64,000 nucleotides of DNA, taken from positions 1 through 64,000 of IMG/VR virus record IMGVR_UViG_3300005253_000051, one strand, 5' to 3'. The notes beneath the pieces were generated by a model. That model saw nothing but the letters and a program-made list of their open reading frames with translations. It was not told where the DNA came from and did not search any database. This stretch comes from a virus. A program made the position numbers and the translations under genes. Below, in pieces: positions 25,873-28,906 of this stretch; the first letter of the stretch is position 1; each line of letters opens with the position of its first letter.

Positions 25873-27340
25873 GTCGCATCTTGAAAGGCGATGCGCTGCC
25901 ATTGCTAGTTCGTCGAGAACTGCGACGAGCCCGTCGCATCTTGAAAGGCGATGCGCTGCCATTGCTACGTCGCGTGCCACGCGCCAGGAGACGAGTTGGT
26001 GTGCCGTCGCATCTTGAAAGGCGATGCGCTGCCATTGCTACCTTCCTCTCGGCCGCGGGGTCGCATCTTGAAAGGCGATGCGCTGCCATTGCTACAGCAC
26101 GACCAACGTCGTTGGTTACGGCACCGACGTGTCGCATCTTGAAAGGCGATGCACTGCCATTGCTACCGCGAGCCATCGGTAAACAGTCGCTCGGCTCACT
26201 CCGTCGCATCTTGAAAGGCGATGCGCTGCCATTGCTACGTGGCCGACGCGGCGAAGATCCTGGGCGTATCCACGTCGCATCTTGAAAGGCGATGCGCTGC
26301 CATTGCTACCTCCTCGATGTAGTCGCATTCGACGACCGAGCACGAAAGGTCGCATCTTGAAAGGCGATGCGCTGCCATTGCTACTAGACGGACCGTCTTC
26401 GAGTACCCGTGATCCAGTCCGTCGCACCTTGAAAGGCGATGCGCTGCCATTGCTACCCGCGCTGGGATCAATTCCGTGAGGAGATCAGACTCGACGTCGC
26501 ATCTTGAAAGGCGATGCGCTGCCATTGCTACAAACCAGCGGCGGCGTTCGCGTTCGCTCCCTCCCCCAGTCGCATCTTGTAAGGCGATGCGCTGCCATTG
26601 CTACGCACCAACAGCGCGACGACTGCGCAGAATGACTGGGAGTCGCATCTTGTAAGGCGATGCGCTGCCATTGCTACAGCATATCCATGGAGGAGCACCC
26701 CGAGCTATCAGCCAAGGTCGCATCTTAAAAGGCGATGCGCTGCCATTGCTACGGATGCGGTGCGTACGGCGATTGCGTGAGACAAAGTGAGTCGCATCTT
26801 AAAAGGCGATGCGCTGCCATTGCTACCGAGCTGGGCGACGGCGAACAGAAAACAATTCTGGTCGTCGCATCTTAAAAGGCGATGCGCTGCCATTGCTACA
26901 TGCGGCGCACGCCGGTGAGAACAATGCTTCCGCGACGTCGCATCTTAAAAGGCGATGCGCTGCCATTGCTACAGGCAACCTGGCCCCTAGTGGAGTGGAC
27001 AATTCGACTGGTCGCATCTTAAAAGGCGATGCGCTGCCATTGCTACACGATGACATTTTTGCGTGCCCATTCATCTGGTGCGACGTCGCATCTTAAAAGG
27101 CGATGCGCTGCCATTGCTACGGATCGGTGCTCTAGCAATCAGCCCACGCTCTTTCGCGTCGCATCTTAAAAGGCGATGCGCTGCCATTGCTACCGTGAAG
27201 CCTACTGGCGACAGAGCTATCCGGGCACCGTGTCGCATCTTAAAAGGCGATGCGCTGCCATTGCTACAGCCCTACGTAAACGTGTCGATCTGCGTTGATC
27301 TCGCGTCGCATCTTGAAAGGCGATGCGCTGCCATTGCTAC
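25873..27340 (-). CRISPR. CRISPR array, 21 repeats of 36 bp and 20 spacers
   Basis: Minus-strand repeat GTAGCAATGGCAGCGCATCGCCTTTCAAGATGCGAC with CGCATC/GATGCG stem, unique 35-39 bp spacers except 24 and 18 bp near the distal end. Confidence 0.98.
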
Positions 27341-28872
27341 GGCGCCTCTGGATCTTTGTGTTTTTTCGCAAACCTAGGCGTGCTTTTTCGAGTGGTTGGG
27401 TTACGGACGTTTCCGATCGCATACATATTCATCATGTTTTGCGTGCTTACGCGGTCACGATCTTCTACGACACCACAGCCCCCACACGTCACCACGCGCT
27501 CGGGCCCGTAGCTGTTGACGAAGCTGCAAGCCGGGCAATGGTTGGTCGTATCGACCGCACAGACGACGGAAACACCCGTGATGCGGCCAAACACGCGCGT
27601 GATCTCTTCAATCACCTCGCCGGGCGCGGCATGATGACCCTGGCGTCGAGCCGGCTTCGGAAGGCTCGTTTTGTTTTCCTTCATCTTCTTGTGGCAGGAA
27701 TCCTTGATGACCGCATGCGCGTAGCGTCGGCGTAGATCACGCAGCCAGACGCGCACGTCGTTGCGCCGCCGGGTGACCGACCGGTTACGACACCCTGCTT
27801 CGTACTGCCACAAGTGCCGCTCCTTCTTGATCCACTTGGTGTGCTCTCCTGGTTTTGCGACACGTCGAACGCTCAGTGTCGATTTCAGTCGTGCGAAAAG
27901 TTTTTTGTTCGAGAATCCGCAAACGGCCAAAATGACGCTCCAAAAACGCTCTTGTTTTTGTAACTCCACAAGGTTCTGATCACGCGCTGATCGTATCCGA
28001 TCAGCTTGATCAGCATGCTTCATCCATTTAGGAGGGAGCACCAACTCGTACTCGGCACCGTCGTCACCACGCGCGTAAGCGATGCGCATGCCGTCGTCGG
28101 TCTTACGCCAACCGACATCGATAGCGACAGCGCCTCGCTCGGCGTTGTCTTTGCGCTCGGGGATATCGCGGCGCGTGAACTGCACAGACCAGATGACACG
28201 ATCTGCGACGTACTTGCGGGCGATCTTGACCCACGTGGCCGTACCTTGAAGGGGACGATGCATCTCGAAAGGTAGTGGCTCGGCCCACACAGGCGCTTGG
28301 CCTTTGGATCCCACACGAAGACGGAGCGTGTAGCGCTGTTGCTTTTTCTTACGAGGATCCGGCGCCGACTTGATCAAGAACATCCGGTCTGGATCCTTGT
28401 CGCGCTGGATTTGGACCGCACACATATCACCCTGGCGCCAGCTGCGGAATTTCACCAGCGAGAAAGATTCAGTCTCTTTCCAAGCCGCCGAAAAGTCTTG
28501 TTCGATCACAAGATAGGTGCCCCAGTATAGGCCACCTTCGGCCGCTTTCTTGCGGAACGGCTTCACGTCAAGAGGAGGCTCAGAACGGTACTGCTTGCGC
28601 AGTGCCTTGTAATGAGCGCGGCAAACCGGACAGAATTTCTTGCACTCGTGCTTTCGTGGTTTGCGTTTCTTGCTTTCCGCTTTATCACAGGTCGAACAAG
28701 ATTTTTTGCACACGTGTGTTGCCGGTGAAGGGGGACGATCCCCGCCCCACATAGTCGTGCGCCTCTCGTTCTCCGCTTCGACGAGACTGTTGTAGTAGAC
28801 ACGGCCCAGGTTCATTTGGGCACACAAGGTGTCCCCACCGGGGAGTGCTCCGTACTTGTAGACTTTGGTCAT
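27337..28872 (-). CDS. cas12m: Compact type V CRISPR effector, Cas12m/V-U1-like (511 aa)
   Basis: VYKYG start, GLYWGTYL, LRVGS..PVW..HRPL, RuvC-I AVAIDVGWR, RuvC-II AVIKD, CPAC/CGGC Zn ribbon, RuvC-III DRD, abuts array. Subtype assignment by eye. Confidence 0.8.
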   Translation of the reverse strand: MTKVYKYGALPGGDTLCAQMNLGRVYYNSLVEAENERRTTMWGGDRPPSPATHVCKKSCSTCDKAESKKRKPRKHECKKFCPVCRAHYKALRKQYRSEPPLDVKPFRKKAAEGGLYWGTYLVIEQDFSAAWKETESFSLVKFRSWRQGDMCAVQIQRDKDPDRMFLIKSAPDPRKKKQQRYTLRLRVGSKGQAPVWAEPLPFEMHRPLQGTATWVKIARKYVADRVIWSVQFTRRDIPERKDNAERGAVAIDVGWRKTDDGMRIAYARGDDGAEYELVLPPKWMKHADQADRIRSARDQNLVELQKQERFWSVILAVCGFSNKKLFARLKSTLSVRRVAKPGEHTKWIKKERHLWQYEAGCRNRSVTRRRNDVRVWLRDLRRRYAHAVIKDSCHKKMKENKTSLPKPARRQGHHAAPGEVIEEITRVFGRITGVSVVCAVDTTNHCPACSFVNSYGPERVVTCGGCGVVEDRDRVSTQNMMNMYAIGNVRNPTTRKSTPRFAKKHKDPEAP

Positions 28873-28878
28873 GGTTTC

Positions 28879-28906
28879 TAAGACGTCTAGGCCGTCGAAT
28901 TATTCA
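28879..28906 (-). promoter_or_regulatory. TGAATA-N16-GTCTTA promoter-like motif upstream of the Cas12 gene
   Basis: 6 nt upstream of ATGACC, same motif elsewhere. Confidence 0.65.

Follow-up and report, generated by a model that had tools for sequence, protein, structure and literature searches.

What kind of system is formed when the gene for a small Cas12-like protein runs straight into a long array of short palindromic repeats that are clustered and regularly interspaced (CRISPR), and does it cut DNA or only bind it? This question is raised by a locus in the IMG/VR virus record IMGVR_UViG_3300005253_000051, which is 81,505 bp long and of which the first 64,000 nucleotides (nt) are referred to here as the window. 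A preliminary description of the window had proposed a TnpB-derived, probably DNase-dead Cas12m-like effector that works with the adjoining array as a programmable repressor. The reading favoured here, with a rough probability of 0.68, is that of a self-contained, two-part type V-M-like CRISPR cassette, a CRISPR RNA (crRNA)-guided DNA binder that would not cut and would be directed against other DNA. The cassette consists of the following parts:

25861..28912, minus strand: whole cassette (promoter-like motif, cas12m-like gene, array and 12-nt tail), present or absent as one block
28881..28906, minus strand: promoter-like motif TGAAT-N16-CGTCT, ending 8 nt before the ATG
27337..28872, minus strand: cas12m-like gene encoding 511 amino acids (aa; P0001), an intact open reading frame (ORF) with a Cas12u1 match
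27305..27340, minus strand: repeat 1, in which nt 2-4 are the TAG stop codon of the gene (27339-27337)
25873..27340, minus strand: CRISPR array of 21 repeats and 20 spacers, with the same reading direction as the gene

This is a real gene with a real array, far beyond chance. The positions of the ORF and repeats confirm that the 511-aa gene runs directly into the 21-repeat array, and there is no leader between the two, as the stop codon lies inside repeat 1. The 21 direct repeats, each of 36 nt and in gene orientation, comprise eight consensus copies, eight with the loop TTTTAAG, two with the loop TTACAAG and three that each differ by a single change; in two of these three, the change makes a stem pair G-U. 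Eighteen of the twenty spacers are 35-39 nt long. The final two, at the end remote from the gene, measure only 18 and 24 nt, and the repeat that closes the array there carries a changed first base. The intergenic gaps were measured at 27 bp upstream (28873-28899) and 50 bp downstream (25823-25872), the values given in the preliminary description. Its statement that the window lacks cas1 and cas2 was also borne out and can be extended to the complete 81,505-bp record, in which the Pfam models for Cas1, Cas2 and Cas4 found no match at E ≤ 1; the same models gave matches in 9-10 of 14 genomes used as controls.

On the basis of homology, the 511-aa protein is a Cas12m-type (V-U1/V-M) effector, and the PADLOC, phmmer and clade-profile results agree on the Cas12m-like identity first suggested for it. 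With PADLOC, residues 2-482 align to positions 3-528 of the 533 in the Cas12u1 profile (E 1.2e-50), and phmmer comparison against the PDB returned the 577-aa 'CRISPR-associated DNA-binding protein Cas12m' 23vw (1.3e-15) and Cas12m2 (4e-9). With a profile of the clade of close relatives described below, these matches strengthened to E 1e-40 (positions 8-470 of 499) and 1e-20, respectively. An identity as Cas12f was rejected, with the PADLOC 'Cas12f' match (E 6.3e-49) ranking below Cas12u1 and the PDB relatives being Cas12m first, and Cas12k of the CRISPR-associated transposons (CAST) was rejected as no Tn7 genes turned up in the window scans. No match for the protein, and no TnpB family, was found in NCBIfam, while Pfam returned only the TNB zinc finger (PF07282) at E 6.6e-4, below the curated cut-off. 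Within an alignment of the 52 closest sequences, query included (A1), the following elements could be located:

28612..28716, minus strand: His/Cys cluster, residues 53-87, with the clade consensus PPH..CxxCxxH
28117..28119, minus strand: RuvC-I Asp252 (IDVGWR), D in 52/52
27703..27705, minus strand: Lys390 at the RuvC-II Glu position (VIKD), K in 51/52
27475..27537, minus strand: TNB-domain zinc finger CxxC...CxxC (C446, C449, C463 and C466), with all four Cys invariant
27454..27462, minus strand: RuvC-III D471-R-D473, both Asp in 52/52

The His/Cys cluster is conserved to differing degrees (His in the column of T52 in 46/52, C81 and C84 each in 49/52, H87 in 32/52), and 23vw has approximately 34 more residues at this point. 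It is a reasonable inference that residues 53-87 form a putative zinc knuckle in the recognition (REC) lobe which replaces part of the REC2 coiled coil. At 511 aa, the protein falls short of the Cas12m norm of approximately 600 aa with a long coiled-coil REC2 insertion, and this short size is treated as a probable subfamily difference.

A word-indexed search returned 88 proteins, query included, among which 51 close relatives (38-51 % BLASTP identity to the query; 404-583 aa) could be distinguished from the remainder (≤36 % identity; mostly 550-660 aa). An exhaustive search of representatives at 50 % identity yielded 2,321 relatives at E ≤ 1e-3, with a clear score gap after the close group. 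The A1 alignment contains 26 invariant columns at a mean column identity of 41 %. The preliminary description had noted that the RuvC-II Glu is replaced while both Asp are kept; this is confirmed, and the Lys proves to be fixed clade-wide and not a one-off. VIKD stands opposite VLEE of 23vw and LVDD of Cas12m2 in the phmmer alignment, and K390 falls in the column of the RuvC-II acid of the solved Cas12m proteins in three independent alignments (phmmer, clade profile and a MAFFT alignment of 222 sequences). Residue 391, which follows K390, varies (D 30, N 14 and K 5 among the 52 sequences) and is therefore not a displaced acid; a different acid might still have moved into the pocket, which is what happens in the RuvC-II-rearranged TnpB clades (PMC10691335). 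Further downstream, H394 (44/52), K395 (51/52) and K398 (52/52) are retained.

The MAFFT alignment was built from 226 proteins minus four of less than 400 aa. Within it, D-K-D occurs in 56/58 members of the pre-picked close set, while 127 of the 164 other relatives hold D-E-D, and thus Glu in the RuvC-II column, the rest being many partly eroded forms. FastTree analysis (LG+gamma; 569 columns; midpoint-rooted) recovered a clade of 57 sequences with a support of 0.997, consisting of 56 D-K-D proteins and P0052 (D-S-D), and the root falls between the close group and the others. The median length of the clade is 501 aa versus 590.5 aa for the other relatives. P0095 (D-E-D), which belonged to the pre-picked close set, lies outside the clade, as do three D-K-D proteins, and the Glu to Lys change must therefore have arisen elsewhere too. 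D-K-D is absent from the triads of Cas12m clades 1-4 given, after Wu et al. 2022, in the discussion of PMC10442227 (HEK/HQK, HDD, DED/NED and DED/DND/NED). The sister of the clade is P0100 (D-E-R), a metagenome representative of 521 aa which keeps the RuvC-II Glu and has Arg at a RuvC-III Asp; independent losses, each of a different catalytic residue, seem to have taken place in these two adjacent lineages. A second clade member, only 43 % identical over residues 4-206, is encoded by the contig L046 (SDBT01642716.1), whose accession prefix resembles that of L038, a contig of a sister strain; two different compact Cas12m-like genes may thus co-occur in related samples.

The functional meaning of the exchange can be gauged from Cas12m proteins that have been studied biochemically. 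According to PMC11013384, Cas12m proteins with D-E-D, H-D-D and N-D-D sites bind double-stranded DNA flanked by a protospacer-adjacent motif (PAM), cut neither DNA nor RNA, show no collateral activity, mature their own precursor crRNA (pre-crRNA) independently of RuvC and protect E. coli from plasmids and phages by blocking, and PMC10442227 reports that the altered Cas12m2 site binds one Mg ion and the displaced strand. As all tested Cas12m bind without cutting, the same is expected here even without the Lys. The replacement of Glu by Lys, which removes the ligand of the second metal and places a positive charge beside the two Asp, most likely gives a non-cutting, tightly binding complex, in which the two Asp and Lys390 would probably keep a grip on the displaced strand, a task that falls to the H-D-D site in Cas12m2. 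Nevertheless, D252, D471, D473, K390 and K398 are conserved in 51-52 of the 52 sequences, more than a decaying site would keep, and the altered pocket might still be catalytic. The two Asp and the K390/H394/K395/K398 cluster would then nick the displaced strand, cleave single-stranded DNA or process pre-crRNA, in the last case including the effector's own mRNA at repeat 1. Furthermore, the site of pre-crRNA maturation in Cas12m is not known, although the tested proteins mature it independently of RuvC (PMC11013384 and PMC10442227). Such residual catalysis is nonetheless distinctly unlikely, considering the lost metal ligand, the consistent lack of cutting and collateral activity among the tested proteins, and the report, in PMC10442227, that restoration of D-E-D in Cas12m2 did not restore cutting; binding of the displaced strand would explain the conservation equally well. 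The fixed Lys at the Glu position, with both Asp invariant, argues for a pocket that has probably been repurposed and has not simply decayed.

The guide RNA was examined through the repeats of nine distinct clade loci (the present one with L038; L001/L002/L039; L003; L004/L005; L040; L041; L042; L044; and L045), which together with two internal variants of the present array give a gapless alignment of eleven sequences. A hairpin of 6 bp (repeat nt 14-19 with 29-34) is paired in 66/66 cells, with changes on both sides at all six pairs; none of 500 column shuffles matched its score, and sliding the partner by 1-3 columns left 17-36 % pairing. A pseudoknot helix of 3 bp (nt 9-11 with loop nt 20-22) is paired in 33/33 cells and has double changes at two pairs, one of which is confined to the three rows from the present window and is thus to be reckoned as one event. 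Across the aligned repeats, G13 and A35-C36 do not vary. The crRNA handle thus delimited comprises repeat nt 9-36 (28 nt), is pseudoknotted and ends in AC. Numbered from the 3' end, its helices pair -28..-26 with -17..-15 and -23..-18 with -8..-3, which is the register of the PmCas12m crRNA seen by cryo-electron microscopy (-28..-26 paired with -17..-15, the stem spanning -23 to -3; preprint 10.64898/2026.03.26.714355), while the terminal A(-2) C(-1) and the G:A closure are those of the Cas12m2 crRNA (PMC10442227). The folding energy of a lone repeat is unremarkable (z -0.75), and the fold rests on covariation.

No sign of a helper RNA was detected: the best anti-repeat outside the array is a 12/13 nt match in the whole genome, where none longer than 13 nt exists, and Rfam found no match in 25000-29500. 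With flanks of only 27 and 50 bp, these results uphold the earlier remark that little room is left for a trans-activating CRISPR RNA (tracrRNA), and a predicted crRNA-only system is the clear reading. Taken with the altered RuvC site, the dead-nuclease, crRNA-only interpretation is well supported.

The overlap between gene and array recurs in the relatives. In all nine distinct clade loci with the gene end on the contig (9/9), the ORF stops inside repeat 1, with a TGA in the hairpin loop in L001, L003, L041 and L042, a TAG in the hairpin loop in L044 and L045, and a TAG in the 5' part of the repeat in L004 and L040. Where the stop lies deeper in the repeat, the crRNA handle encodes the last seven to nine codons. 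The L045 ORF has a break upstream, and the clade ORFs are otherwise open to repeat 1 in the loci examined. Among distant viral Cas12m-like loci the gap from stop to repeat is 9-190 nt (16 loci in which both ends could be located), one further distant viral locus overlaps its array by 20 nt, and the value for L023 is an artefact. Tight spacing of gene and array is not specific to the clade; only the overlap itself is characteristic of it. In a separate observation, irregularly spaced extra repeat copies occur approximately 400 nt past the six-repeat array of L004 (L004:8366-8927, and also in L005), in a 150-kb virus; these include three 55-nt tandem units in which half a repeat is joined to a fixed sequence, and they may be a second, rearranged guide cluster.

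In 8/9 of the clade loci, the last ORF codons lie in or beside the handle, and a cut just 5' of the handle would remove the stop codon from the mRNA, which lends something to the idea of a catalytic pocket that processes its own mRNA. A related and more speculative proposal, which we hold to be improbable, is that the D-K-D clade forms a minimal, self-regulating and portable guide-RNA cassette in which K390-x3-H394-K395-x2-K398 is now a metal-independent site that cuts or grips RNA and matures the crRNAs. Maturation at repeat 1 would then strip the stop codon from the effector mRNA and tie protein output to guide output, and a 3-kb unit with its own promoter could move as a block between unrelated viruses.

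The motif in front of the gene may supply such a promoter. The pattern TGAAT-N14-20-CGTCT occurs seven times in the window, against 1.19 expected, and none of 100 shuffles reached seven; five sites are on the minus strand (15203-15228, 28881-28906, 33488-33513, 38387-38412 and 47429-47455) and two on the plus strand (38894-38919 and 54966-54992). We take it to resemble a promoter of the extracytoplasmic function (ECF) sigma type, and its occurrences may define a regulon to which, among genes of the element, cas12m belongs. Neither a sigma-70-type promoter in 25400-29400 nor a gene-strand terminator between gene and array was found, and TGAAT-N16-CGTCT is the likely start of a near-leaderless cas12m-array transcript.

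Under the crRNA-guided, non-cutting reading, one transcript from this site would encode the effector and continue into the array without a break, so that the effector mRNA would carry the pre-crRNA as its 3' portion. The end of this mRNA would then face competition from maturation at repeat 1, and in the relatives it would be truncated by it. To judge from the solved Cas12m complexes, the effector probably recognises the last 28 nt of the repeat, that is, the pseudoknot, the 6-bp hairpin closed by the conserved G and A, and the terminal C, in a fold demonstrated by covariation, and would release the crRNAs without a tracrRNA. The resulting complex would then bind complementary double-stranded DNA beside a PAM and stay there, blocking transcription or replication without cutting.

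Against which DNA this machinery is directed was sought through the spacers. The 20 spacers gave a best match of 17/19 nt (E 0.43) against their own genome and a best E of 0.2 against the full records of five related viruses, while a distant-match search of the whole array against phage and plasmid collections gave no match. Comparison of 59 spacers (20 from here and 39 from clade loci) with the related loci and the genome yielded only array-to-array identities, plus one spacer common to L004 and L040, and the 20-nt seeds of spacers 1 and 16 had 0 matches in IMG/VR. An 18/19 nt match of the first L038 spacer at 44991-45009 was set aside as chance, being mid-spacer and of E 0.012 over approximately 60 queries. 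The host was sought likewise: neither 185,579 species genomes nor IMG/VR contain the 22-nt core of the repeat, and clade peptide patterns had no confirmed match in genome contigs, with two patterns only and hence as weak evidence of absence. Two adjacent spacers invite comment of their own (numbers 15 and 16, at 26167-26273): one frame of spacer 16 translates as GVSRATVYRWLA, and spacer 15, taken in reverse, gives VADAAKILGVS, with different codons used for the shared GVS. Both look like helix-turn-helix (HTH) coding sequence and are suggestive of excisionase- or regulator-type gene targets.

The proposal of a programmable repressor aimed at competing elements or host genes is supported in its crRNA-only, non-cutting part, while its use is left without a matched spacer. 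The guides are taken to be aimed at other DNA because the 20 spacers are diverse, none matches the element's own genome and the first spacer varies between strains, as described below. A role against rival mobile elements in the same host is considered most likely, with repression of host genes as the main alternative. In that alternative, the same machine would serve to repress host genes, such as defence genes or regulators, or to time the programme of the element itself, in the manner of TldR. A predicted bind-not-cut effector suits regulation, the promoter-like motif is common to six other sites in the window and appears to wire the cassette into the element's programme, spacers 15 and 16 could come from host regulator genes, and no viral or plasmid target emerged from the collections searched. 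However, 20 unrelated spacers, turnover of the first spacer and an allele without the cassette speak for an accessory, fast-changing function, and timing of the element's own programme finds no matching spacer; a regulatory purpose is accordingly judged unlikely.

The variation referred to here was observed in metagenomes. L038, a metagenome contig of 2,914 nt, encodes an identical protein next to a flank that is 97.3 % identical to the present element, and its array shares spacer 2 exactly and has a different first spacer. The runs containing the window stem from metagenomic sequencing of marine sediment in two studies, with dates of 2015 and 2019. In one of these runs (X5), one contig skips two repeat-spacer units and another leaves repeat 10 into a different spacer. 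In two others (X1 and X3; two samples of one study), a contig passes from 25860 to 28913 by way of 12 unrelated letters, and this joint would represent a genome without the whole 3,052-bp cassette. Contigs without and with the cassette have comparable depths (6.3 vs 7.7 and 21.3 vs 19.6). The element can do without the cassette, which comes and goes as one block; as its boundaries include the promoter-like motif, it looks like a moron with its own promoter.

Dispensability also fits an inert relic, that is, a captured TnpB/Cas12 gene with a decaying array and no function left, as do the two short spacers of 18 and 24 nt, the changed first base of the closing repeat next to them and the failure to find targets. 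The locus is nevertheless better preserved than a relic would be expected to be. The ORF is intact, 26 columns are invariant across 52 sequences of 41 % mean column identity, 18/21 repeats are consensus or one of the two loop variants, both stem variants stay paired through G-U and the RNA fold covaries across loci. Furthermore, the protein is 100 % identical in two strains whose flanks differ by approximately 2.7 %. A functionless remnant is thus highly improbable.

Several observations count against a crRNA-guided binder of foreign DNA. No protospacer was found, and hence neither a PAM nor a class of target nor proof of guide use, nor was any RNA run present among the sequencing runs containing the locus. 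The strict conservation of D252, D471 and D473 would also fit a site that still performs chemistry. The joint without the cassette comes from contigs of one study with only 30 nt on its short side, which is the length at which such contigs end. The first two repeats (R1 and R2) differ at one loop base in the present array and are identical in L038; this mismatch does not suit duplication of repeat 1, and the difference in first spacer may therefore reflect recombination and not adaptation. Finally, no terminase, portal or capsid gene was found in the element, with ten of 13 larger ORFs scanned in its last 17.5 kb, and the carrier may be a virus without a tail or a mobile element of some other type.

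The closest known systems are the type V-M Cas12m proteins (MmCas12m2, PDB 8HHL/8HIO; GoCas12m; MsCas12m; PmCas12m; and PDB 23vw), with which the present cassette shares near full-length homology, an adjoining array in the same orientation, the lack of adaptation genes and of a tracrRNA, the pseudoknot and hairpin register of the handle with its terminal AC, an altered RuvC site and the expected mode of action, PAM-dependent binding of DNA that is not cleaved (PMC11013384 and PMC10442227). It is distinguished from them by a protein approximately 80-100 residues shorter, the putative His/Cys knuckle, the D-K-D triad, an ORF that ends inside repeat 1 and carriers that are viruses, not bacterial chromosomes. 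Among phages, MvCas12m of myxophage MV-1 (610 aa, intact D-E-D, 8 spacers) is called the first phage Cas12m in a September 2026 preprint (bioRxiv 10.64898/2026.09.14.751636), and virus carriage of Cas12m as such is therefore no longer new; viral V-U1-like effectors are also mentioned in a landfill virome study (PMC12607003). MvCas12m is encoded on a phage genome and, like the present effector, adjoins its array and lacks cas1, cas2, cas4, a tracrRNA and detected spacer targets. Here, by contrast, the protein has 511 aa and D-K-D, there are 20 spacers, and the gene is fused to the array.

Resemblances extend to the TnpB lineage. In the IS200/IS605 elements, TnpB and its omega-RNA come from one transcript, with the guide scaffold reaching into the 3' end of the nuclease ORF. 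The present protein retains the D-R-D form of RuvC-III and likewise has a guide scaffold that overlaps the ORF end, but unlike TnpB and the obligate mobile element-guided activity (OMEGA) systems, it is accompanied by a 21-repeat array with variable spacers and a 28-nt handle, has an altered active site and lacks transposon ends and TnpA. CasPhi (Cas12j) and Cas-lambda of huge phages are also compact, crRNA-only type V effectors without adaptation genes; they are active nucleases of approximately 700-800 aa. Neither was matched in the PADLOC, phmmer-PDB or clade-profile searches, and by sequence neither is the closest relative. TldRs rely on a single long guide that does not vary, and control a set gene. 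The present system differs from them as a Cas12m homologue with a variable multi-spacer array, but shares a small TnpB-derived protein in which cutting is lost: according to bioRxiv 10.1101/2023.11.30.569447, TldRs are nuclease-dead, TnpB-derived repressors, some of them phage-borne, that are thought to repress transcription under RNA guidance. The Cas12 subtypes as a whole have been treated as repeated derivations from TnpB, with V-M showing gradual loss of the catalytic site (PMC10691335).

Literature searches returned no paper that combines Cas12, RuvC and DKD, with the proviso that Table S1 of PMC11013384 (134 variants, from a search that included IMG/VR) and the trees of Wu et al. 2022 may already include clade members. 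Within the reach of these searches, the compact D-K-D clade, the rule that the ORF ends in repeat 1, and the polymorphisms of the cassette and first spacer are not in print. If the prediction is true, these would be the smallest natural CRISPR-type programmable DNA binders (proteins of approximately 470-530 aa whose guides have a handle of 28 nt and need no second RNA), approximately 100 residues below the Cas12m which are now being built into base editors, CRISPR interference circuits and epigenome editors. The fusion of ORF and repeat keeps a TnpB-style overlap of gene and guide in a true CRISPR array and offers a testable coupling of effector translation and crRNA maturation, while the apparent coexistence, in sediment populations, of genomes with and without the cassette and of arrays with different first spacers provides a natural system for studying guide renewal in viruses without Cas1-Cas2.

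The label 'virus-encoded' given to the cassette stands as far as the record class (virus with direct terminal repeats, CheckV completeness 100 %) and the replication and integrase module are concerned, and is left without the capsid, portal and terminase genes noted above. The ends of the record overlap by 122 bp. Genes for DNA polymerase (family A), helicase, PD-(D/E)XK nuclease, ThyX and a primase-like protein lie in the window, as do those for a tyrosine integrase and an M23 peptidase; no tRNA genes were found. The remaining 17.5 kb of the record (64001-81505; L050), presumed to be the structural or late region, has 13 ORFs of at least 200 aa, ten of which were scanned against PHROGs and Pfam with 0 and one match, respectively, the latter a transglutaminase core; virion genes were not recognisable in the scanned ORFs, and the carrier may be a non-tailed or very divergent virus. 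Relatives of the cassette were found on IMG/VR contigs at 33 loci (5 close and 28 distant homologues), and in the ESM Atlas the closest clusters have 84-91 % viral content. The L001 cassette has a helicase gene on one side and the genes for large terminase and portal on the other, and in L044 an integrase gene follows it. Homologues of eight flanking proteins were sought in the related loci L001-L033 and none was found; only gene and array are conserved as a unit across the related loci.

Two further features of the surrounding sequence were noted. A 72-aa ORF directly after the array (25604-25822, minus strand) has a C-terminal HTH-like stretch, AAKKLGIGFSTLKQKI, which by eye resembles Fis; this ORF is not part of the cassette missing from the alternative allele. 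The minus strand between 8924 and 36684 holds many paralogous ORFs of approximately 160-195 aa with Ala-rich, repeat-like centres (for example 9421-10909, 21437-22021, 24648-25148 and 30607-31191), three of which are contained in a tandem 500-nt repeat at 9286-10592.

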